Source of the DNA: an uncultured Chitinophagales bacterium
GTDB lineage: Bacteria; Bacteroidota; Rhodothermia; Balneolales; CAYWCV01
DNA length: 20,990 nt
Direction: 5' to 3'
Assembly (NCBI GenBank): GCA_964640035.1
Contig: CAZXGO010000009.1
Location: forward strand, 2,413-23,402
The translations under genes were made by a program, and so were the position numbers. The notes under the pieces were generated by a model, which ran no database searches, was not told the DNA's origin, and was given only the letters and a program-made list of their open reading frames with translations. Of the stretch, positions 7,320 through 20,990 are shown piece by piece. Numbering within the stretch: the stretch's first letter is position 1; every line of letters starts with the position of its first letter.

Positions 7320-7838
7320 TCAGTTGTCTGCTGGTTTTTCGACTTCTGTTTTAAGATCTTTCGCAGCTTTTTCACCACGGCTAAACATCATCTTAAAATT
7401 TTCGGTGAATTTAGCAGGATCGAGATCGAGAAAGCTACCACCGTTTTCGAAGTGGTTGATGAAGACATTACCCAATGCATACGCTGATGCCGATGCAAAA
7501 AAGGGCATAGTAATTGTACCTACAAGAGTACCGATCAGGGGTAGTGATTTAATACTACTTCCAAGAGTACCCTGAGCAAGAGTATTTGCCGTTACGCCTG
7601 AGAGAGCAGCAGAAATAGTATTTTTTGCAGTGTTTTCAGAAAATTTTACGCCGTACGCATCTGAAATTTCTGACACCATTTTCATTTGAACTCCGACAAT
7701 GGTAGCCAGATCAATAAGTGGGAATGGTATTAATCCGGCGCCACCAGACCATAACATGTAGCGTCGGGTGATGGCCATAGCCTGTTTTTCTTTGTCACTT
7801 GCTGGACGAGAAGCAGTTGCTGTTTTTTTAGTGGACAT
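7320..7838 (-). CDS. DUF697/YcjF-like small membrane-associated protein, paralog A.
   Basis: 172 aa. The core reads AITRRYMLWSGGAGLIPFPLIDLATIVGVQMKMVSEISDAYGV … ALGNVFINHFENGGSF. It is clearly homologous to the 10233-10733 ORF. WRYTLIAAGIGLIPSPTVNSVGVAVLELAMIDELAKNY matches its first block and VVGKLFKHHFETGGTF matches its last. The family assignment (DUF697) is from memory of the G..G.IP.P..D…iq..M…Ia.iYG pattern. Confidence 0.5.
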   Translation of the reverse strand: MSTKKTATASRPASDKEKQAMAITRRYMLWSGGAGLIPFPLIDLATIVGVQMKMVSEISDAYGVKFSENTAKNTISAALSGVTANTLAQGTLGSSIKSLPLIGTLVGTITMPFFASASAYALGNVFINHFENGGSFLDLDPAKFTENFKMMFSRGEKAAKDLKTEVEKPADN

Positions 7839-8267: not shown

Positions 8268-8972
8268 TCACTTATTTATTAACATTATTTCTTTCATGAG
8301 TGGAATATTATTTGTTCGATTCGGCATGCACCAGGAAACAGCGTAGCTCATATTTTGATACCTTAATTGTTGATAAGAGCCAGTCCAGCAAACACCGTCT
8401 AAAATAAGTTCCCAGTTTGATGGATGATCATGAGGGAACTGAATTTCAAAATGCCGAGGGTCAAGCGACAAACCTAGTCCAGTTGCTTTTAAGGCTGCTT
8501 CTTTTGCAGACCACATCATAAAAAAAGCCTCTGTCTCGGTACAATAATCTTTTGAAACCCAGGCTGTGATCTGACCGATCTCATAGGGAGTATATAAACT
8601 TTTGAAATCGATCAGTGATCGGTTGTGATGAAGCTCAATGTCGATACCGCATGGTTCATCTCCGTGTATAAGTGCTATCAAATCGCCTGAATGGCTCCAA
8701 TTAAACTCAAACGAACATTGCTTGAGACTTGGTTTGCCATTCGAGTTGTACTCAAATTCTAATGGTTTCTCCAGGTACGTTCTAGACCCGGTTTCGCGCG
8801 TAATCAGCTAATGCCAAAGCAGAATACGAGCAGCGATAAACCGGTCTGCATCCTGCTTATGATAAAAACGAGACGCTTTTTGAAGATCTTCAGCACTCAA
8901 CATTTGAGAAACCAACTCGGCCGATGTCTGCTCAAGTATCTGTGTATAGGGCTGTACGATGAGTGCATTCAT
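8268..8972 (-). pseudogene. Sfp-type 4'-phosphopantetheinyl transferase reading frame (234 codons) interrupted by one in-frame TAG (amber) at codon 55 (plus-strand 8808-8810).
   Basis: From the ATG at 8972 it reads MNALIVQPYTQILEQTSAELVSQMLSAEDLQKASRFYHKQDADRFIAARILLWH*LITRETGSRTYLEKPLEFEYNSNGKPSLKQCSFEFNWSHSGDLIALIHGDEPCGIDIELHH…MMWSAKEAALKATGLGL…. All Sfp hallmarks are present and in the same frame: RFYHK.DA, GKP, FN(W)SHS, GIDIE and WSAKEA.LKA. The ORF track shows only the C-terminal 137 aa (TTG start at 8681). Other genes here stop with TAA or TGA and none needs TAG read as sense. Confidence 0.75.
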
Positions 8973-9000: not shown

Positions 9001-10224
9001 TTACTGTTTTGAGTGGTCAAGATAACGCATCAGATTGAGCACAAACTTCCAATTGTGTGTAGCCATCTCGCTGTTCATTCCCATTCTTGTAGAACCATCG
9101 GCAGCGATTTGGGCTGTAAACATACCTGCCTCACCAAACATAGCCACTTTCCCATTTCCATGTTCGACTAAAGCTGCTTGTAGTTTTTGGGTAGCATCTA
9201 CCACAGGAACAACAAAAGCTGGTAATTCTTTCGTCGAAAGGAGAGACACCATTGTTTGTTGGTTTGAACTGTTAGAATCTTTACCAAAATAGGCATCCTG
9301 AGCTTCTGTGAGTACCGTAAAGGGTCCATCACCAAAGCGTAAAAGGGGATGCAATTTCATCCCAGGCAATTCTTCGGCGCTGAAACTATGACCTGTAAAC
9401 GTTGTGACATATGGGATGGTGGTATCATTCTGAGTTCCGGCATCACCCTTCAAAAAATCATTGATTTTGAGAGTTCCATCACCCTTTTGATATCCAGCTT
9501 CGGCCTGAGGATTGGGAGAGTTCCAAAAGCGTAAGGTATTAATTTCAGCTCCTAAGGCTACAAAGAGACCGCTCGCTTGGCTTACAATCTGTTGATTAAC
9601 GCTTGCATTATTTGGATCCGCTTTACCTTGCATAATTTGATCAACTACAGGAAGTTGAAAAAAGCGTTCTTTTAAGATGGTATAATATTCAGGGTCAAAA
9701 TTGTATCCATTATCAAGAGAGAATCCGAATCGAGCGGCTAAATCTGCCGTTGCACCTGGAAATGGATAATGATCGGCAATAAGTAAAAGAGATCCTCCCT
9801 TACCCACCCATTCAACGATAGCATCAATTTCTTCGCTGGTAAATGCACTTAAAATGGGGCTCACCCATTTTGGTTCTGGATGATTCGCATCATTAGCAGG
9901 ATTTGATATTACTAAAACCTTAACATCTTGCAGATTCTCGCGGGTAAATTTCTCAGTAAATGATTCAACCTTGAAGCCATCGTTTCGTAGCAGATCAGCG
10001 AATGGTTTAAAACGTTGATCTTTCGTATGAAAATTGTTGTGGGCTGCATCAATATAAATGACTGTTTCGCTCGAATAGGGCTTATATGGAACGGGAGGCA
10101 CATAGTTTTGGTCATACGATTGAACCTCAAGAGCCGGTGGTTTTGCACCCTGTGATTGTTGGGCAATGCTTGTCTGACTAAAAAGAAATGCTAGTAGGTA
10201 AAAAAGTATGATCACATTTTTCAT
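9001..10224 (-). CDS. Secreted, cysteine-free 407-aa protein of unknown function. It may have a DUF4350/ThuA-like (class I glutamine-amidotransferase-like) N-terminal fold. It lies in the same gene string as the NRPS.
   Basis: The signal peptide is MKNVIILFYLLAFLFSQTSIAQQ. The motifs VIYIDAAHNNFHT…VKVLVISNPAN…GGSLLLIADHYPFPG are reminiscent of the DUF4350/GldG N-terminal domain, a weak call made from memory. There is an 8-bp gap to the upstream DUF697-like gene. There are no Cys residues at all. Confidence 0.6.
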   Translation of the reverse strand: MKNVIILFYLLAFLFSQTSIAQQSQGAKPPALEVQSYDQNYVPPVPYKPYSSETVIYIDAAHNNFHTKDQRFKPFADLLRNDGFKVESFTEKFTRENLQDVKVLVISNPANDANHPEPKWVSPILSAFTSEEIDAIVEWVGKGGSLLLIADHYPFPGATADLAARFGFSLDNGYNFDPEYYTILKERFFQLPVVDQIMQGKADPNNASVNQQIVSQASGLFVALGAEINTLRFWNSPNPQAEAGYQKGDGTLKINDFLKGDAGTQNDTTIPYVTTFTGHSFSAEELPGMKLHPLLRFGDGPFTVLTEAQDAYFGKDSNSSNQQTMVSLLSTKELPAFVVPVVDATQKLQAALVEHGNGKVAMFGEAGMFTAQIAADGSTRMGMNSEMATHNWKFVLNLMRYLDHSKQ

Positions 10225-10232
10225 GGTGAGTT

Positions 10233-10733
10233 TTAGCTTGTGGTTGAGGATGCGATTCGGATGGGTAGTTCTTTTTTTCCGTTTTCGAGCTCCGTCCGGA
10301 ACATTTTTCTGAGGGTACTGTTATCCTTGCTCAAAAATGTTCCACCTGTTTCGAAGTGGTGTTTAAAGAGTTTGCCGACAACGTAGACAGACAAGGCTCC
10401 TGTGATGGAATAAATACTCGATGCAACAAAATGTCCTACGAAGGGAATGCTGGAGAGCGATGATTTAGATTTTAAAGCCAGATATACAGGTCCCAAACTT
10501 CCTACCAGTGAAATAAACGCCTTGGCTGCGGCTAATTTCGTTGGAAAGGGGAAAGAATAATTCTTGGCAAGTTCATCAATCATTGCTAACTCGAGTACCG
10601 CAACACCGACCGAGTTAACCGTGGGTGATGGTATGAGTCCAATACCAGCAGCAATTAGGGTATAACGCCATACAATGGCCTCACCCGATGCAATCGGATC
10701 TGTACTTTGATCTATATTCTTGGATTCATTCAT
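10233..10733 (-). CDS. DUF697/YcjF-like small membrane-associated protein, paralog B.
   Basis: 166 aa and homologous to 7320-7838 (see that entry). It lies 81 bp downstream of the type II thioesterase and 8 bp upstream of the secreted protein. Confidence 0.5.
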   Translation of the reverse strand: MNESKNIDQSTDPIASGEAIVWRYTLIAAGIGLIPSPTVNSVGVAVLELAMIDELAKNYSFPFPTKLAAAKAFISLVGSLGPVYLALKSKSSLSSIPFVGHFVASSIYSITGALSVYVVGKLFKHHFETGGTFLSKDNSTLRKMFRTELENGKKELPIRIASSTTS

Positions 10734-10814: not shown

Positions 10815-11537
10815 TTATTTTAGCAATGTTTTTCGGATGATAGTGCCAACATGATTGATTTCATCAAAAAAGGCAAAATGACCCCCTTTTTGTGGATTAA
10901 ACTCTATAGAGTACTTTGTTTCATTTTGCCATGGAATTAATGCATGAATGGGGGTTTCCACATCCAAGGTACCATAAAAGACAGTGATGGGAATATCAAG
11001 GGGTTCGGATGGATTCTGGTAGCGATAGCATTCCAAGGCTTGAATGTCAGCTCGAACAATAGGCTCAAAGAAATTCATCAATTCTTGATGTTCCTTAAGT
11101 TCAGGTGGAAGCGCTCCAAGACTTTCTATGTAGGCCCAGAAATCCTCCGTAGCGGCTTTGTAGTGTGGAATATCAAGATGTGCCACTTTTGGCACTGATG
11201 GTGCACCATGAGCACTACAGAATATGTGCTCAACCCTGCCGGGCGTATCTGACTCCGACAAACGAGTGATCAGATAGGCAAGTAACGCTCCCATGCTATG
11301 ACCAAGTAAAGCAAATGATCGTTCGTTAGCATAGTGTTTAATTTGTTCATACATATCTAAAGCTATGGATTCAATATCCGTTAGCAGTGGGTCTTTCAAT
11401 CGTTTTCCTCGCCCAGGTGGTTCCAAGGCTACAAGGTCAATCTCATCACCCAAAAGCGGCTTAAGATTTCTGTAGACTAGAGAATTACCGCCTGCATAGG
11501 GTATAGCAAACAGTACTTTTGGATCATTTATCGTCAT
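10815..11537 (-). CDS. Type II (editing) thioesterase, alpha/beta-hydrolase, GrsT/TycF-like.
   Basis: 240 aa. The nucleophile elbow is GHSMGALLAY. The N-terminal LFAIPYAGGNSLVYRNL matches the TEII pattern, and a C-terminal His lies in GGHFAF. It sits 15 bp downstream of the NRPS stop. Confidence 0.9.
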   Translation of the reverse strand: MTINDPKVLFAIPYAGGNSLVYRNLKPLLGDEIDLVALEPPGRGKRLKDPLLTDIESIALDMYEQIKHYANERSFALLGHSMGALLAYLITRLSESDTPGRVEHIFCSAHGAPSVPKVAHLDIPHYKAATEDFWAYIESLGALPPELKEHQELMNFFEPIVRADIQALECYRYQNPSEPLDIPITVFYGTLDVETPIHALIPWQNETKYSIEFNPQKGGHFAFFDEINHVGTIIRKTLLK

Positions 11538-11552
11538 AAAACCTTCACTGAA

Positions 11553-14500
11553 TCAATCGTTAGATATAATTTGGGCAATGATGTCTGCAAGCTGAGAAAC
11601 ATGGGGTTCATTAAGCATGGTGAGGTGATCACCTGGTGTGTGATGAATATGAAGGTGGTGTTGAATCCATTCAGACCATCCTAAATCAGGAGTGGAACGG
11701 AGTTCATGTACCCTTGAATCATTCAGATGTTCAGGCTGTAATTCAAAGGAGCGTATCAGATGAATATCCAGGTTTTCTAATTTCGCATGTGGATGGTATT
11801 CCATCTGAAGATTACTCCGATATACCTGGATAAAGCCTTCCAATTGAATGAGCGGTGTTTCAGGTGGAAAGATTTCAGCCTTAATTAGAGCCTCCAGTAA
11901 CTTTTGAGTAGGACTAGATCCTTGATCTAATTGTTCATCATCGATATTGACCCACTTTCCAAATTGATGTGAGGCAATTTCGGCAATTTGACGTGTCCAT
12001 TTTTCCATGGACCAGTCTTTACCCGTTGGTTCAAACCAATGAGGTGCTGACGAATCCAATATGATAGCCTTGTGTTTCAAGTGCACATCTTGAGCAGAAG
12101 TGCGTTCAAGTTGACGTGCCATTTCATATGCTAGGAGTCCGCCGAATGAATGACCGACAAGAATCAAGCTGCTGTTGGGTATTGCATCACTAATGGCATC
12201 CAGATAGTGACTGGCAAGCTGATCCATGGTAGTACATACGGCAGTTTTTCCATCAAGACCTGGAGGCTGTACACCATAAACTGGAATATCTAGACCTAGT
12301 GTTGATGCAAGTGCTTGCATATAGAGAATATTTCCACCGGCACCAGGAATAAGTACGATGGCTTTTTCGTCGACGGTTCCTTTTCGAAGCGGAATAATCG
12401 TCGGCCAGGCCGTAGAACCCTCGGATGACGTTCTAAGATTTCGGGTAAAACTTTCAAGAGTGGGATAATGGAATAAACTGACGAGTGGAAGCTGGATTCC
12501 AAACTCAGCATGCACCAATGCCATCATCCGAACAGCTAAAAGGGAGTGTCCGCCAAGCTCAAAAAAATGATGTTGAGGGCTAATGTGATTGACACCCAAA
12601 ACTGCTTTCCAAATGGATGCCATCCTGTATTCGAAAATATCTCGGGCTTCCAGTCGGTCAGCATGTGCATGTTCGGTAAGATTAAGCTTTCTATTACTTA
12701 ATGCTTTTCGATCCAACTTCCCGTTGGGTGTCATTGGGAAAGAGTCCACTATAATAAAATGAGCTGGAATCATGTACTCAGGAAGAAGAGGCCTGAGATA
12801 GGTTGCCAACGTTTTCCCTTCAACAGTCTTTTTTGATCCAGGGATAATGTATGCCACCAATTTTCCCTCTGATCCACTCCCATAAAGAACAACAGCTGAT
12901 AATGATATTCCTGGATGATTACTTAAATGGTATTCTATTTCACCCAATTCTATTCTAAATCCACGTAATTTTACCTGTTGATCACTTCTTCCCAGATACA
13001 TGATCGATCCATCGGGTCGAAACTGGGCTAAATCGCCGGTATTGTACATTTTGGGACTCGCTACTTCTCCTTTCGAGCTCAGACCATTGATATCTGAGAT
13101 CGGCTTGCTGTAGGGGTCTGAGATAAATCGCTCCTGAGTTAGATCATCCCGGTTCAAGTATCCATCCGCAACCCCTATTCCACCGATATATAAGGTACCA
13201 GTTATTCCAGCTGGTAGTGCCTGGAGTTGATCATCGAGAACATATACAAACGTATTGTCGATGGGGCGACCAATTAAAACAGGAGATGATGCGTCAAGAG
13301 TATGTTTATCAATACGTGAGATCGTTGAGTAAACCGTAGTTTCAGTGGGCCCATATAAGTTCCAAACGGAGGCACTTTTTGAAACAAGCTCTTTTGCCAA
13401 GTGGTACGAAAGTGCCTCTCCTCCAGTGAAAATCTTCAGCTTGTCGTTTCCATGCCAGGATTGTTCTACCATCATATTCCAGGTGGCTGGAGTGGCCTGC
13501 ATGATGGTGATATCACCTTTTAAAATACGCTCCATGAGGGCTTGCGGGTCTTTTGCTACTGTTTCTGGAGCCAACTCAAGGATTCCACCACAACTGAGGA
13601 TACCCCAAATTTCCAGCACAGCAATATCAAATGATATCGTTGTCAAGGCCAGGAGTTTATCATTATGATCCATCCCAGGTTCACGATGGATAGATTGGAT
13701 AAAGTTCAAGACGCCTCGATGAGGTATAATGACCCCTTTGGGTCGACCAGTACTCCCAGAAGTGAAGATGACATATGCTATATCGCTTGGCCGAATAGGA
13801 ATGTTCGATTCCTCAGCATTGAGACTTTCCGGATCGATTTCAATGTTATCTACAAGTACCTGGGCCGAGGTAGAAGGTATGCGATCAGCTAAGGTTGACT
13901 CTGTAAGGACCAATTCGATCTCGGCATCTTCAAAAATCATTTCTATCCGTTGCGATGGATAATTCGGGTCAAGAGGGACATAGGCATGGCCTGCTTTCCA
14001 AATTCCAAGCATGGAGCTTATCAAATAAGACTTCCTCTCCAGTGCAACCGCGATAAGTGATCCAGGCTTTAGCTTTAGGTTTCGAATGAAAGAAGCAATT
14101 TTATTGGATTCGTCCCTCAATTCAGCATAGGTCATTCGCCGATTTATGGCATTTAATGCAATGTGATCGCCTCGTACGTGTGCCTGATTATCGATCAAAT
14201 CTACCAAAGACACCGCATCATCCAGTGGCCTGGAGGTTTGGTTCCAATTTGCCAATGTCATCATGGCATGGTCTTCACTCTGAAGAGCAATATGATCGAT
14301 TGTTCGACGATCATCCCATGAAAGTTCTGAAAGAATATGCTTGAACTGTTCTGACATCTGATGGATACGCCATTCTTGAAATAAGTCGGTGCTGTACTCC
14401 AAATATCCAGCAAGAGTATCTCCTTCTTCTGCAAAAAGAAGAGACAGATCATATTTAGAGATGGTGTTTTTATGTTCAAGAAGATCAGAATCAAGACCCT

Positions 14501-17500
14501 GAAATGATGGTGGGTTCATGCGTTGTGTTTGCATGCTTAGCATCACCTGAAATAAAGGCGAGTATGCCGTATTTCGTTCTGGTTGCAAGATTTCAACAAG
14601 TTGTTCAAACGATATGTCCTGATGGCCATACGCCTCAAGGGCTGTGGCCTTTATTTGTTTTAAATATTGGACAACGCTTTGCTTAGGATCAAGATTAAGT
14701 CGTAACACTTGTGTATTGACAAAAAAACCAATGAGTGGCTCAAAAGCGGCCTTTTTTCTATTTGCAAATGGCGCTCCAATGACGATATCCTCTTGACCAG
14801 AATACTTATGAAGCATGATCCCAAAAACGGCAGTAAGTATCATGAACGGGGTCATCTTGGATACCTCTGCGAGTTTTTGCACTTTTTGACTTAGATCCTG
14901 CCCCAGTTCAAAACGATGTGTAGCACCTTGATACGTTTTTACAGGAGGACGCTGAAAATCGGTAGGTAATTCCAGCAAAGCAGGAATATTGGCCAGTTTA
15001 TCTTTCCAATATTCAGCTTGTCGCTGAATTTCTCCAGTGTTGATCAACTCATCTTGCCATTTCGCATAATCTGCGTATTGGCTTTCAAGTACTGGTAGAC
15101 CATGATCCTCACCATCGATGAACGCTTGATAGAAATATTCCAATTCCCGGGAAATGAGTCCAAGTGACCACCCATCCGACACAATATGGTGCATGTTAAT
15201 GGTAAACAGGTACACATCATCCTCAAGTCGGACAACTGCTGACCGAAAAAGTGGTCCTGAACGCAAATCAAAAGGTGTATTACTCAGATTCTGAATCCAT
15301 AATTCAAGATGCTCCTGTTTGGTTGAATCCTTCAGCAATCGAATATCAACCACACTGAGTGGGTTGGAGTGTGGAGTAATCTTTGTTTGTAGCTCAGCAT
15401 CGACTGATACGATCGTGCTTCGAAGCACCTCATGACGTTGTTGTAAACGATCGACGGCATACTTAAGGGCATCCAGGTTAAGCTCACCATACATTTTGAT
15501 GGTGATAGGCATATTATAGGTTGGTTTACCGCCATCAAGTTGTTCGAAAAACCACAGTCGCTTCTGCGCTAAGGACAGAGGTCTAGTGTTGCTTGATTCG
15601 TAGCCTGTTGAGATCGGGTGTGTCTGACTTGGCCGAACTTGGTCATTAACCGTATTTGAAGAGATGACCCCTGGTTTGCTTGTTGAAGCATTGGAACCCG
15701 ATGAGTCAAAAGCATATCCCAGTTGACGTGCTACATCGACTGTGAGATCACCTAATATGTCGACCGAATAATGCTCTTTCCAACGATCTGAAGTATTAGC
15801 ATCTATTTTTTTATGCGAATGAAATTTAACATCTCCTAACATTCGGGATTCGGCATAAAGGCCATCCGTCATGCGACGTTTTTTCTCCTGATCATTAAAC
15901 AATGCAAGCATTTCTGCATCAAAGGGTATGCCAATATGTGCGCACAAACGCTCCATCTCTTTTTTCGGATGATTCGTCATATCCTCAAAAGAGATACTGG
16001 TTTGTCTATTTTGGGGAATAGTTGATAAAAAATGAGTGATATTTTCGTGACTTTGAAACCAAATAAGTTCAGCCAGCTCACGTGATTGAAACGTGTGAGG
16101 ATATCTAAAGAAGATCTGCTGCAATTTGGCTTCAACAAAGGAATGGATCATTCCCAATGGATGGCGATGCAGGTGGATGTAGAACGCATCCTCAAAATTG
16201 TTTTCTATTCTTTCCAAGATGGATGGATGAAGAACATACGATGGTGATTTGTCGACCAGGATTTGTTCATCAACCGATTTCTGGAGTTCATTGTAGAATT
16301 CTTTTACGCTGAGATGAGCCTCTTCATACCGATTCATCGCCAATTTGGCTTCCTCAGCATTCAGATCTTTAGCTTCCATGAGAGCCCGGATGGTCCCCTC
16401 TAACCAAAAGCTATCCCGACCGGTATAGGTATCTGCACGTTCCTTCAGGGTATTAAAAGGCATTAACTCTAGTTCGGGTGGAGCAAAGAGCATCGGATGC
16501 CCACCTAATAATACCCTAAGTAAGGTAGTACCAGAACGTGGAGGTGCGAGCACAAAAATGGCACGTTTATTTTTGGACTGTACCTTCTCCTTATATGATG
16601 ATAGACCTGGTATGAGATCTTTGAATGTTGAGATATCATTTGGAGATATACGTGTTATCTCTTTCTTTGAAGAAGAGCCTAAATCATCAAATTGAGCATA
16701 AATTTCAGGATAATGCTCTGTGATATAGATCGCTAGTTCTGCTATCGTTGGAGCTTCGAACAAGGCAACGACATAGAAAATACACCCAAAGTGTTCTTGA
16801 ATCCGGTTTGAGAAGATGGCCGCTTTGATGGAGTCGCCACCCAGTTCGAAAAAGTTATCATGAATACTTAGCTTCGGAAGTCGCAGAAGTTCGGACCAGA
16901 GATTGGCTATATATTCTTCAAGTGTATTTCTGGGTTCTACTAGGGGAGTGACTGAAGAATGACTTTCTCTATCTGGGTCAGGTAAAGCCTTTAGGTCAAC
17001 CTTACCATTATGCGTTAATGGCATTTCTGATAGAGTGACCATAGCTGAGGGCACCATATACTCAGGCAGTTTGATACTAAGATGTTCTCTTAGCGCTTTA
17101 AGCCTTTCGTTCGGATTCACTTCGGGTTGAAAGACAAGATATCCTGCAAGTTCATTACCTGAAGTGGATTGTATAACTTTCACCACGGCAGTGCTTACAC
17201 CGTTGAAGGATTTTATTAGGCTTTCAATTTCCCCGATTTCGATACGAAATCCTCGAATCTTGACTTGTTGGTCAATACGTCCAAGGTACTGTAGTCTACC
17301 ATCCAATCGTCTTCTGGCTAAATCTCCACTACGGTAATATCTGGCTATAGGAAGTCCGGCAGACATCTGCGTTGAGATGAACCGTTGCTCATTGAGCTCG
17401 GGGCGTTTCAAATATCCCTTTGCTACTCCGGCACCTCCAACAACAATCTCGCCCGGAATACCAAAAGGGACTAATTGGCCATAGTCATCACACAAATCCA

Positions 17501-20150
17501 AGCTTAGGTCCGGAATAGGATTTCCGATGATGCTGCTGCCATTTCGGACATCCTGCTCGGTGATTTCATGCCAGGTAACATGAACCGTAGTTTCAGTAAT
17601 GCCATACATGTTTACCAATCGAGGTGAGGAATACCCATGACGTTGAAACCATCCATCCAGACTTTTTATATCAAGCGCCTCCCCTCCGAAAATAACCCAT
17701 CTGAGCATGGATAATGAATTTCCTGAGCGTCGATCCACTTCAGCTAATTGGGCAAAAGCTGAAGGAGTTTGGTTGAGTACCGATACGTTCTCTTCAACCA
17801 ATAGCTTGTAAAATGCATCTGTTTGACGTGCTATTTCTTTTGGTACCAAAACCAAGGTACCCCCATATAGGAGTGCGCCAAATATCTCCCAAACGGAAAA
17901 ATCAAAGGCATACGAGTGGAAAAGCGTCCAAATATCAGTATGGTCAAATCTATAATACGATTCAGTACATCGAAACAATCGGATGACATTAGCATGTGAC
18001 ACCTCTACACCCTTAGGCAAACCTGTTGACCCAGAGGTATAAATGATGTAGGCTGTGTCTTCCGGAATCCCCACATTAATGGCTGGTTGGATCCTGTTAT
18101 CGTGCTCACTAAGTTCATTTAGAATCTCAGGGACGCAGATATTAGTTTGTCCGCTAGAGGGTAATCCTGATCTGGATACCTCGTCAGTGAGTACGATCTT
18201 CAGCTCCGCGTCTTCGATCATAAAGGACAACCGATCAATAGGATAGACAGGATCCAGTGGAACATAGGAAGCTCCAACCTTTAAAATGGCCCATATCGAA
18301 GCAACTAAATCGGGACTACGCTCCATGAATACCCCAACCCGATGCTGCCTTCCTATTCCATGATGGCTTAAAACTTCAGCCAGGATAGTTGAGCGTTGAT
18401 GCAACCATTGGTAGGTGTAGGAATTTCCATCGTAGCGCAGCGCAGTGTGTTGTGAATACTTTTCTGCAGCATGCGCTAAGAGCTCTTGTAATGTTTCATT
18501 AACTGGGTAGGTTTGTCCAGCACCTCTGAGTGATAGCAGTTCCTGAAGCTCTAATTTAGTGGTGAAGGGAATCTGGTGAACCGGTACTTCAGGTTGGGAG
18601 ATGAGTCCTTTTAGTAAAGCAATAAAATGACCCGACATTCGCTGAATCGTTTCTCGATCAAAAAGTTCAGTGTTATATCGAAACCTTCCGTGAATTTGTG
18701 ATCCAGACTCCTCCATAGATAAGACTAGATCGAAGGGAGCTTTGCTGTTTTCGGGCTCCATCTCTATAAGTTCAAGGCCACCTGAGCGAAACTCAGATGA
18801 TGGGGCATTTTGCAATGCAAATAAGACCTGAAACAACGGAGTATGAGTGAGCGATCTGGTAACATTTAGAGCCTGAAGAAGCTCATCAAAAGGCACTTCT
18901 CCATGTTCAAAAGCTTGAATCGACATCGCCCGTACACGTTGTAAAAGCTGAAGAAAATCGGGTGATTCGGTTAAATCAACCCTCATGGGAAGAGTGTTTA
19001 GAAAGAGTCCAACAAGTGGCTCCGTATCAGGATGGGGTCGTACAGAAATGGGAGAGCCAATGAGTATATCATCCTGACGGCTGTAGCGAGATAGTAGTAC
19101 GGCAAACACAGACAAGAGCACCATGTAAGGTGTCGTAGAAGTTTTAGAAGCCAACAACCGTAGGGTTTTAGTCTCTGATGCCTCAAGAGTAAAAGCACAC
19201 GTATTCCCGTGAAAAGACTGCATTCGAGGTCTGGGTCGATCAGTAGGCAACTCCAGAAAGTGTGGCGCGCCTGATAGAACTCTTTTCCAGTGATGAATGC
19301 TACGCTGAATACGGTATGCATCCATATAACAGCGCTCCCATAGAGCAAACTGACCATAATGAATATCGATGGGCTTCAATGGGTTTGATTTACCCGTCAT
19401 CTTTTCCTCGTACAGCGTAGATACCTCCGCTACGAGATTTCCCAGTGACCATCCATCCGCACAAATATGATGAAGGGTTAAAATGAGTATATGCCGAAGA
19501 TCGCTACATCGGATCACACCTACCCGAATGAGTGGATCTCCCTTTGTAAGATTAAAGGGCCGCTCCCCCTCTTCCAGAATAATCGTTTGGATACGCTTGG
19601 AATCTTCACCAGATTCAGACAGCTCATAGATGGAGAATGGGACTTCACCACCTTGATCAGGCCATTGTCTGGGTTCGTTATTTTTAAGCCCAAATTTTGT
19701 TGAAAGTCCGGTATGGCGATGAATTAAATCCTGAAAAACCGCCCTCAACACCTCCAGATTCAATGAACCCTTGGCTTCAAAAACAATTGGTAACATGTTG
19801 TATATCGGCGAGTTACCACCTGCCAATTGATCCAAAAACCAAAAACGCTGTTGAGCAAAACTTAAGGGGTATCCATCTTGATCTCTATGATGATCAGGAT
19901 ACAAGGTATTAAGCGACCTAAAAATGGGCTGTTCAAGGAGGTCCTGAGATTTTTTTTCGTGTTGAAGAATCCTTATAAGCTCTGCTTTATGACGTCTCAT
20001 CGCGTCAACTAAAGCCTCATCCATACTTCCTTTAGGAGCAGAATACCTTAGTTGATCATCTTCTAGGTAGAGCCTTATGCCTTTGGCTTGAACCTCAAAG
20101 AGAAGATCTAGTGCATTGGAATCGAATGCTTGGTAGCTTTCATTCAACAT
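11553..20150 (-). CDS. Bimodular non-ribosomal peptide synthetase with an N-terminal beta-hairpin docking domain and an embedded sulfotransferase. The order is dock-C-A-PCP-ST-C-A-PCP-TE.
   Basis: 2865 aa. The motifs are as follows. C1 has [10 protein letters not shown] and HHICADGW (aa 227). A1 has [63 protein letters not shown] and NGKVD. PCP1 has FFELGGDSI (Ser ~1107). ST has [21 protein letters not shown] (aa ~1198). C2 has [11 protein letters not shown] and MHHIVSDGW (aa 1654). A2 has [63 protein letters not shown] and NGKLD. PCP2 has FFELGGHSL (Ser ~2536). TE has GHSFGG (Ser ~2668). TGA stop. The start is 14 bp downstream of the upstream KR-carrier gene stop. Confidence 0.95.
   Translation of the reverse strand: [2865 protein letters not shown]
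11556..12383 (-). other. Terminal type I thioesterase (chain-release) domain.
   Basis: [15 protein letters not shown]…[15 protein letters not shown] (Ser codon at 12147-12149). The C-terminal [11 protein letters not shown] holds the catalytic His region. Confidence 0.8.
12441..12638 (-). other. Peptidyl carrier protein PCP2 (Ser codon at 12543-12545).
   Basis: [20 protein letters not shown]. Confidence 0.8.
12711..14207 (-). other. Adenylation domain A2 (approx. aa 1982-2480). The FDIAVLE signature is tentatively of the small/Gly type.
   Basis: A-domain cores are as listed for the parent CDS. Asp-Ile-Leu at the first three Stachelhaus positions resembles the Gly code DILQLGLIWK. The remaining code positions were not reliably extracted. 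Confidence 0.55.
14301..15593 (-). other. Condensation domain C2 (approx. aa 1520-1950).
   Basis: [14 protein letters not shown] and [12 protein letters not shown] (His codons at 15186-15191). Confidence 0.8.
15699..16583 (-). other. Embedded PAPS-dependent sulfotransferase domain of the CurM/olefin-synthase ST type (approx. aa 1190-1484), inserted between PCP1 and C2.
   Basis: [38 protein letters not shown] matches CurM ST …[30 protein letters not shown], the 5'-PSB loop. [20 protein letters not shown] matches [23 protein letters not shown] matches IHLVRHPYAVIESF, the 3'-PB region. The CurM strings are recalled from memory. The domain runs from ~KNKRAIF to …[11 protein letters not shown]. 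Confidence 0.8.
16731..16928 (-). other. Peptidyl carrier protein PCP1 (Ser codon at 16830-16832).
   Basis: [25 protein letters not shown]. Confidence 0.8.
17001..18488 (-). other. Adenylation domain A1 (approx. aa 555-1050). The FDFSVWE / [12 protein letters not shown] signature is tentatively of the Thr (hydroxy-amino-acid) type.
   Basis: A3, A4, A5, A8 and A10 cores are as listed for the parent CDS. The specificity guess comes from Asp-Phe-Trp at the first three Stachelhaus positions and the YGITETTVH motif, recalled as typical of Thr-activating domains. No predictor was run. Confidence 0.6.
18561..19898 (-). other. Condensation domain C1 (approx. aa 85-530).
   Basis: C1 motif [10 protein letters not shown] and C3 HHICADGWS. 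Confidence 0.8.
19956..20150 (-). other. NRPS N-terminal TubC-type beta-hairpin docking domain (aa 1-~65).
   Basis: [62 protein letters not shown] matches the betaHD pattern …L…gv.Lw.egd.LryrAPkG.l…l…l..hK.ell..L. Confidence 0.7.
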
Positions 20151-20164
20151 GAGACGTATTGAGC

Positions 20165-20990
20165 TTAAATGAATCCTTCATCTCGATCTTCACTTTGATT
20201 AGCGTTAGATAAGCTATCAATGTCAACCGCCATTTCGGCCACTGTTGGTTGTTCAAACAAACGGGAAAGCGTCAAATCGGCTTTAAAATGTCGGCGAATC
20301 AGCGCCACAAGTTGTGTGAGTAATAAAGAATTGCCTCCGAGTTCAAAGAAGCTGTCGTGAATACCAATTCCCTGAATTCCGAGGAGCTGCTCCCACAATT
20401 CTGTAAGTTTCTTTTGAGTAGTATTGGATGGCGCCGTATACAATCCTAAATGTTCGGGGCGGGGATGTGCATCCAGAACTTGAATTTGTAGCTCGGCCTG
20501 TTTCGATTTGCTCACCCACTGGGCTATGCGTGCATTGAGATCACCACTGGATATCACCAATCGTTCTACAGAAGGCATTTTTAGCAGATATTCAAAGGCC
20601 TGTATACCTTCAGAGGGCGTCATTCCCAATTCGGCTGCAGATGAGTTCGTATTGCCAGCTAAGGCATCAAGATCATCAAATATCCAGCCTTCCCAGTTGA
20701 TCGAGATCCATTTACCGGGTTGTTGCTGATTTAATATGGAAATTTTTGCATCGACAAGCGCATTCGTTGCAGCATATGCCGAAAAACCCAGTCCACCCAA
20801 AATGGGTGACAAGGAAGAGCAAACCAAGCAAAAGTCGAAGTCTATCTGAGCAAGTGCTTTTTCGATAACATCAAGGCCCTGAACTTTAGGGATAAACTGC
20901 CGGGAATTTTTCTCTTGTCCGTGCTCAGTCAAAGACTCGCTGATCGTGACAAAGGAATCCTCACCCACGATCAGCGAGTCTTTGACTGAG
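20165..20990 (-). CDS. C-terminal part of the upstream assembly-line protein (5' end off window). It has a ketoreductase domain, a PCP-like carrier protein and an acidic C-terminal docking tail.
   Basis: KR catalytic region CSSLSPILGGLGFSAYAATNALVDA…WISINWEGW. Carrier IHDSFFELGGNSLLLTQLVALIRRHFKADLTLSRLFEQPTVAEMA. C-terminus …NANQSEDRDEGFI, then TAA. The frame stays open to the window edge. The ORF-track start (GTG at 20968) is internal and the true N-terminus lies beyond 20990. Confidence 0.85.
   Translation of the reverse strand, partial: SVKDSLIVGEDSFVTISESLTEHGQEKNSRQFIPKVQGLDVIEKALAQIDFDFCLVCSSLSPILGGLGFSAYAATNALVDAKISILNQQQPGKWISINWEGWIFDDLDALAGNTNSSAAELGMTPSEGIQAFEYLLKMPSVERLVISSGDLNARIAQWVSKSKQAELQIQVLDAHPRPEHLGLYTAPSNTTQKKLTELWEQLLGIQGIGIHDSFFELGGNSLLLTQLVALIRRHFKADLTLSRLFEQPTVAEMAVDIDSLSNANQSEDRDEGFI
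20924..20990. repeat. Perfect 25-bp inverted repeat with a 17-nt spacer that ends exactly at the window boundary, inside the KR-coding sequence. 20924-20948 reads CTCAGTCAAAGACTCGCTGATCGTG and 20966-20990 reads CACGATCAGCGAGTCTTTGACTGAG.
   Basis: Verified by reverse-complementing base by base. The repeat could extend further outward past the window end. Confidence 0.8.

Follow-up and report, generated by a model that had tools for sequence, protein, structure and literature searches.

One gene in the window, i.e., the whole stretch of 20,990 nucleotides analyzed in this study (positions 2,413 to 23,402 of contig CAZXGO010000009.1 from an uncultured Chitinophagales bacterium), encodes a nonribosomal peptide synthetase (NRPS) with a sulfotransferase (ST) domain inside its assembly line. 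The NRPS begins with a docking domain, which is followed by a module of condensation (C), adenylation (A) and peptidyl carrier protein (PCP) domains, the ST domain, a second C-A-PCP module and a terminal thioesterase (TE). The ST domain, which resembles those of curacin CurM and of olefin synthases (OLS), is the main subject of this study. An earlier note, made from the letters of the sequence, had proposed such a domain between PCP1 and the second C domain (C2). Its coordinates were right and the coding strand is the minus strand, as the plus-strand frame is riddled with stop codons and its reverse complement is an open stretch of 295 amino acid (aa) residues. The motifs that the note had quoted (FVLAPPRSGTTLLRVLLGGHP, LVDKSPSY, IHLHRHPLGMIHSF and ELELMPF) are all inside this stretch. 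The features of the window are listed in Table 1.

Table 1. Genes, domains and motifs of the window, in order of position.
Feature	Position	Strand	Description and basis
DUF697 paralogue	7320-7838	-	Flanks the 407-aa protein and the PPTase-like open reading frame (ORF)
Short phosphopantetheinyl transferase (PPTase)-like ORF	8268-8681		TTG start; between the DUF697 paralogues
407-aa protein	9001-10224	-	No confident family; between the DUF697 paralogues
DUF697 paralogue	10233-10733	-	Flanks the 407-aa protein and the PPTase-like ORF
Type II thioesterase	10815..11537	-	Free-standing; PF00975, E 9.2e-32
NRPS gene	11553..20150	-	2865 aa; dock-C1-A1(Thr)-PCP1-ST-C2-A2(Gly-like)-PCP2-TE; ORF list, translation, Pfam, phmmer domain map
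Terminal TE	11571..12359	-	aa 2598-2860; generic NRPS/polyketide synthase (PKS) type; PF00975, E 6.3e-24
Carrier PCP2	12411..12650	-	Motif LGGHSL; phmmer map, second Pfam PP-binding stretch
Adenylation domain A2	12681..14261	-	aa 1964-2490; code DILQFGLVYK, a Gly-code variant; code alignment
Condensation domain C2	14262..15593	-	aa 1520-1963; ordinary elongation type, intact HHIVSDG; best PDB relatives
ST domain, CurM/OLS type	15699..16583	-	aa 1190-1484 of the NRPS; PF13469, 4gbm match, AlphaFold, Foldseek
RHPLGMIHS	16140..16166	-	Presumed 3'-phosphate-binding Arg...Ser motif; conservation in relatives
DKSPSY	16236..16253	-	Counterparts of CurM Lys133 (Lys) and Ser134 (Ser); alignment to 4gbm
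PPELELMPF	16455..16481	-	First Glu equivalent to CurM Glu60, second Glu at the CurM His62 position; alignment to 4gbm
PPRSGTTLL	16518..16544	-	5'-phosphosulfate-binding loop; Arg equivalent to CurM Arg39
Carrier PCP1	16722..16916	-	aa 1079-1143; Ser attachment motif LGGDSI; PF00550, translation
Adenylation domain A1	17001..18476	-	aa 559-1050; PF00501 and PF13193
Condensation domain C1	18534..19880	-	aa 91-539; PF00668
TubC_N-type docking domain	19962..20108	-	aa 15-63; accepts the chain delivered by the upstream PKS; PF18563, E 7.3e-13
3' end of the upstream PKS gene	20165..20990	-	C-terminal part of a ketoreductase (KR) and an acyl carrier protein (ACP); runs off the window; PF08659, PF00550

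Region 15699-16583 of the minus strand encodes a CurM-type ST domain. Both sulfotransferase models of Pfam scored above their gathering cut-offs. PF13469 (Sulfotransfer_3) was found in the whole NRPS with an E-value of 1.2e-29 and 104.6 bits versus a cut-off of 27, which is far above chance, and in the excised ST domain with an E-value of 3.5e-31 and 109.6 bits. PF00685 scored 39.4 versus a cut-off of 22. The best sequence matches of the ST in PDB, identified with phmmer, were the ST of CurM (4gbm, E 2.9e-59) and that of OLS (4gox, E 1.3e-51), followed by tyrosylprotein sulfotransferases with E-values of ~1e-4. The AlphaFold model of the ST, based on an alignment of 62 homologues, had a mean pLDDT of 93.3. 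The two structures with which the earlier note had wished to compare the domain were also its two top fold matches: Foldseek ranked 4gbm first (TM 0.90/0.94, rmsd 2.3 Å) and 4gox second (TM 0.87/0.93), and the subsequent matches were again tyrosylprotein sulfotransferases, with TM of ~0.6. In the structural alignment, the ST was ~38% identical to that of CurM. A generic P-loop NTPase was ruled out, given that all significant matches in Pfam, PDB and Foldseek were sulfotransferases. In the Pfam domain order, the ST is directly downstream of its carrier, starting ~aa 1190, and upstream of C2, as the note had placed it.

Functional probing of CurM ST has reportedly covered Arg39, Lys133, Ser134 and Glu60, the last of which is the proposed base. 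The chain numbering of 4gbm, with an offset of 3, agrees with what we take to be the CurM residue numbers. In the pairwise alignment with 4gbm, all four residues were identical in the window ST. The PAPS (3'-phosphoadenosine 5'-phosphosulfate)-binding residues, part of which the earlier note had recognized, were also present on alignment. They are found in PPRSGTTLL and in RHPLGMIHS, the latter of which is the presumed 3'-phosphate-binding motif of the sulfotransferase fold. The equivalents of Arg39 and Lys133 and the 3'-phosphate Arg and Ser were invariant in 62/62 homologues, in which the equivalent of Glu60 was invariant or nearly so. Similarly, the equivalents of Arg39, Glu60 and Lys133 and the 3'-phosphate Arg and Ser were invariant in 95/95 NRPS-embedded ST domains.

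His62 in the PPELHLLPF motif of CurM is replaced by Glu in the window ST, for which reason the note had questioned its activity. This worry was not borne out. Among the 62 homologues, the His62 position was mostly occupied by Glu (31) and Gln (15), followed by His, Leu and Tyr (4 each), and it was Glu in all 95 NRPS-embedded ST domains. Thus, Glu at this position does not indicate an inactive domain. Because it is constant among the embedded domains and variable across the family, Glu at this position is the signature of a sub-clade (PPELELL) rather than a departure from a requirement of the family. With its cofactor-binding and catalytic residues intact, the window ST is probably functional.

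Relatives of the ST were surveyed in two ways. First, a scan guided by a profile and covering a single genome for each species (GTDB species representatives; L numbers denote loci) identified at least 594 genome stretches that encode ST relatives, and the domain context was mapped with phmmer, using the domains of the window NRPS themselves as probes. The best 76 of these loci were 51–65% identical to the window in ST. The closest was 65% identical, and the second and third, from a "Bacteroidetes" metagenome-assembled genome (MAG) and a Balneolaceae MAG, were 64% identical. In these 76 loci, A-PCP-ST-C was the rule and A-PCP-ST-TE the main alternative. In addition, 1.84 billion representative proteins were searched exhaustively with HMMER, and 1066 of them matched at E ≤ 1e-30. 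Of the top 148, which were mapped, 66 had A-PCP-ST-C and 31 had A-PCP-ST-TE.

The exact architecture of the window NRPS, dock/C-A-PCP-ST-C-A-PCP-TE in a protein of ~2800–2890 residues, was found at 12 loci among the best 76 of the at least 594. These loci span Thiotrichales, Propionivibrio, Sulfuricellaceae, Thalassomonas, Delftia, Comamonadaceae, Moraxellaceae, Magnetococcales, Herpetosiphonaceae and others. Examples are a Thiotrichales MAG (L001), Thalassomonas sp. RHCl1 (L006) and Delftia sp. PS-11 (L007), and A(Ser/Thr)-PCP-ST modules also occur in many Acidobacteriota. An FAAL (fatty acyl-AMP ligase), with or without ACP, and a PKS module of ketosynthase (KS), acyltransferase (AT), KR and, in part, ACP adjoin the same-architecture NRPS in L004, L006 and L028. 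In L007 and L008, at least the KS-AT part is beside the NRPS and the locus ends within the PKS gene.

The earlier note had assumed that ST domains of this kind are terminal and that an internal PCP-ST-C is a new layout. Neither assumption held. A-PCP-ST-C is abundant in genomes, and the literature describes internal ST domains between PCP and C in OciA, AerB and DysB, where they belong to modules that load glycerate (PMC2533009, PMC6520454, PMC10143770). Thus, the layout alone is not new.

The A domains upstream of the ST point clearly to its substrate. In the 76 closest loci, the A domain before PCP-ST had a Ser or Thr code in 58/72 cases (38 Thr and 20 Ser) and a Tyr-like code in 5, compared with Ser or Thr in 5/79 A domains of modules without ST (Fisher p = 3e-22). 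After removal of the 13 same-architecture proteins (the 12 loci and the window), Ser/Thr accounted for 45/59 A domains with ST vs. 5/66 without. In the 148 diverse representative proteins, the coupling was weaker (37/100 with ST vs. 6/77 without, Fisher p = 6e-6), and the remaining ST-linked codes were enriched in Tyr-like, diaminobutyrate (Dab)-like and ornithine (Orn)-like ones. The code DIWE[ILM]TADDK, which we take to be Dab-like, was found in 11 ST-linked A domains of these proteins, and several others are presumably Orn-like. The Ser/Thr coupling is independent of an upstream KR, as the Herpetosiphonaceae loci L011 and L021 have NRPS modules upstream and Acidobacteriota NRPSs have as many as three successive A-PCP-ST modules (L019).

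The window fits this A(Ser/Thr)-PCP-ST clade on all counts: its ST is preceded by A-PCP, the A domain has the code of a hydroxy amino acid and the ST carries the PPELELL signature. The specificity code of A1, taken by alignment, is DFWNIGMVHK, which is a Thr code and is also found in 10/12 same-architecture loci. This agrees with the Thr suggested in the note for the first amino acid. The substrate that the note had proposed, an intermediate tethered to PCP1, is also the most plausible one, as the ST clade goes with modules that are themselves specific for Ser or Thr.

Other members of the clade have further arrangements. A single ORF of L019, from an Acidobacteriota MAG, has three A-PCP-ST modules in a row (A-T-ST-C-A-T-ST-C-A-T-ST-C..., where T denotes the carrier), and two or three consecutive A-PCP-ST modules were also found in L055, L022, L032, L042 and L060. 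Such consecutive modules predict Acidobacteriota peptides that would be multiply sulfated or multiply dehydrated. In P0127 and P0130, two carrier-ST pairs are back to back (T-ST-T-ST), neither an A nor a C domain separating them. Many free-standing proteins of ~430–500 residues consist of PP-binding and ST domains (P0019, P0020, P0024-P0027, P0040, P0043 and others), and one sub-group of these has Gln at the CurM His62 position, in the motif A[SA]ELQLLGF. L038, from the cyanobacterium Sphaerothrix gracilis, ends in C-A-T-ST-TE with a Tyr-like code (DASTIAAVCK), which predicts a C-terminal sulfotyrosine. The Dab-like and Orn-like partners hint at N-sulfonation of side-chain amines in some members, which recalls the trans-acting SulN.

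The LGGDSI motif of PCP1 is typical of carriers that serve tailoring (epimerization, E) domains, different from the motif of PCP2 before the TE, and GGDSI also precedes the ST in homologues P0001 and P0002. The linker between ST and C2 is ~35 aa long in the translation and contains no further domain. The top PDB relatives of C2 were the C domains of Txo2 and Txo1 (E 3.7e-86), compared with an E-value of 1.3e-13 for the dehydrating C domain of AmbE (7r9x). Thus, a dehydrating C domain at C2 was ruled out. At the position of A2, the Gly code DILQLG[ML]VWK was found in 9/12 same-architecture loci. The second A domain is not Gly-specific in L011 and L014 (DINDLGIDIK) or in L044 (DVLTIGAVCK), and the first module with Thr and ST is the conserved part. 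Vlm2, Pks13 and others matched the TE, and no chain named curacin or CurM thioesterase was among the PDB matches listed. As these matches were generic only, a decarboxylating TE of CurM type is unsupported for the window NRPS.

The upstream PKS ends with KR-ACP (PF08659 and PF00550), as the earlier note had read it. The type II thioesterase, which also follows the NRPS in L006, L077 and L078, is probably the last gene of the cluster. Beyond it are the two DUF697 paralogues, the 407-aa protein and the PPTase-like ORF. The PPTase may be degenerate, because the homologous gene on a related contig was called at just 82 aa. Unrelated transport genes are found beyond this group. Named relatives of a neighboring Band-7 protein, at 65–83% identity, are from Bacteroidota and Balneolales MAGs. 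Together with the second- and third-closest ST loci, they indicate that the host probably resembles Balneolales.

The genes further upstream were read from the related contig, one of whose proteins falls into the same cluster at 90% identity as the window NRPS. There, the gene upstream encodes KS-KR-ACP (1243 aa) without an AT domain, and the gene before it encodes 1778 aa, whose domains are PP-binding, class-III aminotransferase, C, A and PCP. In the PKS module of this contig and of L077 (5640-9389), only remnants of the KS-AT linker were found and the AT domain was absent. Lacking an AT domain, KS-KR-ACP must therefore be loaded in trans. L006 and L028, which encode relatives of the NRPS, have a cis-AT module (KS-AT-KR-ACP) instead. 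The exact 35 nucleotides of the upstream end of the window had no match in the metagenome contigs searched. A protein-guided scan of the metagenome contigs for the upstream region of the window found only the orthologous loci L077 and L078, which are 55% identical. Both contain the same three genes and the type II thioesterase, with an NRPS ~48% identical to that of the window, and their first gene has an A domain with an Asn code (DATKIGEVGK). By analogy, the line resembles an iturin-like start, in which a β-amino fatty acid would be followed by Asn, one ketide reduced to a β-hydroxyl, Thr with the ST, Gly and release.

From these results, we propose, with a probability of roughly 0.55, that the ST catalyzes the PAPS-dependent O-sulfation of PCP1-bound Thr and that the sulfate is retained in a lipopeptide ending with Thr(OSO3-)-Gly. 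A1 would load L-Thr onto PCP1, and C1 would join it to the chain from the upstream KS-KR-ACP. This chain would end with a β-hydroxyacyl unit that, by analogy with the orthologous loci, extends the Asn of a β-amino-fatty-acyl lipopeptide. Before or after the C1 step, the ST would transfer sulfate from PAPS to the β-hydroxyl of Thr, which has the same position relative to the thioester as the β-hydroxyl sulfated by CurM. C2 would then add Gly, and the TE would release the product with its sulfate ester kept, possibly in cyclized form. The data show what the domain is and how it folds, that its cofactor-binding and catalytic residues are intact, that it follows PCP1, that the codes are those of Thr and a Gly-like residue, and that the ST clade is statistically coupled to Ser/Thr modules. 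The activity of the ST, its acceptor hydroxyl, the timing of the reaction and the retention of the sulfate are the parts that we infer. The β-hydroxyl of Thr is taken as the acceptor because the ST travels with modules whose side chains can be sulfonated, regardless of a KR, and because of its β position. Tyr-, Dab-like and Orn-like partners cannot undergo β-elimination of sulfate, which favours retention, and the comparative evidence as a whole leans toward plain, retained sulfation.

Several points weigh against this proposal. Of the ST-linked A domains in the diverse representative set, 37% are specific for Ser or Thr, so that the coupling has exceptions. In L004, L006 and L028, and also in the orthologous L077 and L078, a PKS module with KR-ACP adjoins the NRPS. 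Because this adjacency recurs, architecture alone is insufficient to argue against the KR-derived hydroxyl for the bimodular sub-family. Retention is argued from analogy and from the lack of an obvious eliminating domain, and an O-sulfated Thr thioester would be chemically labile and primed for β-elimination. Moreover, no PAPS-supply genes were found in the window, and the A(Ser/Thr)-PCP-ST clade was defined here from genomes. Finally, no natural product of the predicted structure was found in the full-text literature, which covered few papers of subscription journals.

Instead of being retained, the sulfate could serve as a leaving group, in which case sulfated Thr on PCP1 would be converted by β-elimination to dehydrobutyrine (Dhb), or would form a ring by intramolecular displacement, and the product would be free of sulfate. 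We consider this fate possible, although unlikely. The closest characterized relatives, the STs of CurM and OLS, are "activating" enzymes whose sulfate is eliminated (PMC6274090, PMC11837247), and by chemical reasoning a Thr β-sulfate, being beta to the thioester, would favour elimination. Ser and Thr, the sole residues that can be dehydrated in this way, also make up 81% in the closest relatives; other members of the clade, however, are found after Tyr-, Dab-like and Orn-like modules, whose residues do not permit elimination. The β-sulfate that in-line NRPS STs place on PCP-bound glycerate survives into the product (PMC10143770, PMC6520454). C2 is not of the dehydrating type, and no lyase is evident as an extra domain of the NRPS or among the window genes near it. 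A CurM-like TE after the ST was likewise not supported at the one ST-TE terminus looked at, that of L030. That the Thr sulfate leaves and that Dhb or a ring is formed without a dehydrating C domain strikes us as doubtful.

It is improbable, in our judgement, that the ST sulfates not Thr but the KR-derived β-hydroxyl of the upstream polyketide unit, either N-linked to Thr on PCP1 or still on the ACP. The STs of CurM and OLS do act on KR-generated β-hydroxyacyl carriers, a KR-ACP precedes the window NRPS, and a KR-bearing PKS module adjoins the NRPS in the five loci named above. With FAAL-ACP and KS-AT-KR-ACP, such a cluster looks like an olefin synthase with an inserted NRPS (PMC11837247). Across the clade, however, the presence of the ST follows whether its own module is specific for Ser or Thr and not whether a KR is present. 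N-linkage to Thr would take the acyl hydroxyl out of the β position relative to the thioester, and the upstream ACP belongs to a separate protein, ~1100 residues away from the ST. The KR-derived hydroxyl is kept as the less likely acceptor, being conserved in some members of the bimodular sub-family. Still far less credible is a catalytically dead relic that functions as a spacer or structural element only. Such a relic would be consistent with the change of His62 to Glu and with the absence of PAPS-supply genes from the window, but all cofactor-binding and catalytic residues are conserved and the Glu is itself constant in the NRPS clade. Moreover, the ST family has been kept at 51–65% identity over several phyla, which argues for selection on function.

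If, as we propose, the ST sulfates the residue of its own module, a class of strongly anionic, sulfated nonribosomal peptides would have been overlooked by structure prediction and by mass spectrometric dereplication. If the sulfate leaves, the ST would represent a new dehydration logic in NRPSs, the counterpart of the phosphorylation- or glutamylation-elimination of lanthipeptides and of the sulfate elimination of CurM. Given that A(Ser/Thr)-PCP-ST recurs widely, this would be a general, previously unrecognized route to dehydro-amino acids in nonribosomal peptides. Under either fate of the sulfate, the ST is a compact, portable tailoring unit of engineering interest. To our knowledge, very few natural products described so far contain Ser or Thr as a sulfate ester. 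In the full-text literature covered, we found neither an ST in a Ser/Thr or any other amino-acid module of an NRPS nor a nonribosomal peptide with O-sulfo-Thr. Thus, in-line PCP-ST-C was already known from glycerate modules, and an ST in an amino-acid elongation module is seemingly new within that literature. The interest rests less on the window alone than on the large, phylogenetically wide A(Ser/Thr)-PCP-ST clade. The window ST is a member of a widespread, seemingly uncharacterized class of in-line domains, most likely sulfating the amino-acid hydroxyl of their own module.

Similar to the STs of CurM (4GBM) and of the OLS of Synechococcus PCC 7002 (4GOX), the window ST has the same fold, family, PAPS-binding loops and catalytic pair of Glu and Lys. 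It is likewise directly after a carrier domain, and the substrates of CurM and OLS ST are carrier-tethered with the hydroxyl beta to the thioester. Different from these two, which follow a PKS ACP in an ACP-ST-TE terminus, the window ST follows the NRPS PCP of a Thr module and is succeeded by C-A-PCP-TE, with no dedicated decarboxylating TE adjacent to it. It also differs from CurM ST in having Glu in place of His62, and its sulfate is probably retained, whereas theirs is eliminated.

By published layout, the window ST is similar to those of OciA (cyanopeptolin 1138/oscillapeptin E) and AerB/DysB (suomilide, varlaxin and dysinosins), which are also in-line NRPS domains after a PCP and before the next C domain and whose FkbH-PCP-ST products have a glyceric acid that is still sulfated (PMC2533009, PMC6520454, PMC10143770). 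The positions are parallel as well, as the 3-hydroxyl of glycerate and the Thr hydroxyl in the window are both beta to the PCP thioester. However, OciA, AerB and DysB begin the line by loading glyceric acid via an FkbH-type domain, whereas the window ST is in a C-A-PCP elongation module for Thr, and Pfam gave no FkbH match in the window NRPS. SulN of sulfazecin biosynthesis also uses PAPS to sulfonate an NRPS intermediate that is still bound to a PCP and yet to be released (PMC11298585), which is its likeness to the reaction proposed here. Different from the window ST, SulN is free-standing, N-sulfonates a diaminopropionate residue and is not an embedded CurM-type domain.

Close counterparts of the window NRPS are encoded by the 12 same-architecture loci, with which it shares dock-C-A(Thr)-PCP-ST-C-A-PCP-TE, the PPELELL signature and, in many of them, adjacent FAAL and KS-(AT)-KR-ACP genes. 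Different from several of these relatives, which have a simple FAAL and PKS, the window line has an AT-less KS-KR-ACP and an aminotransferase module upstream, as read from the related contig.

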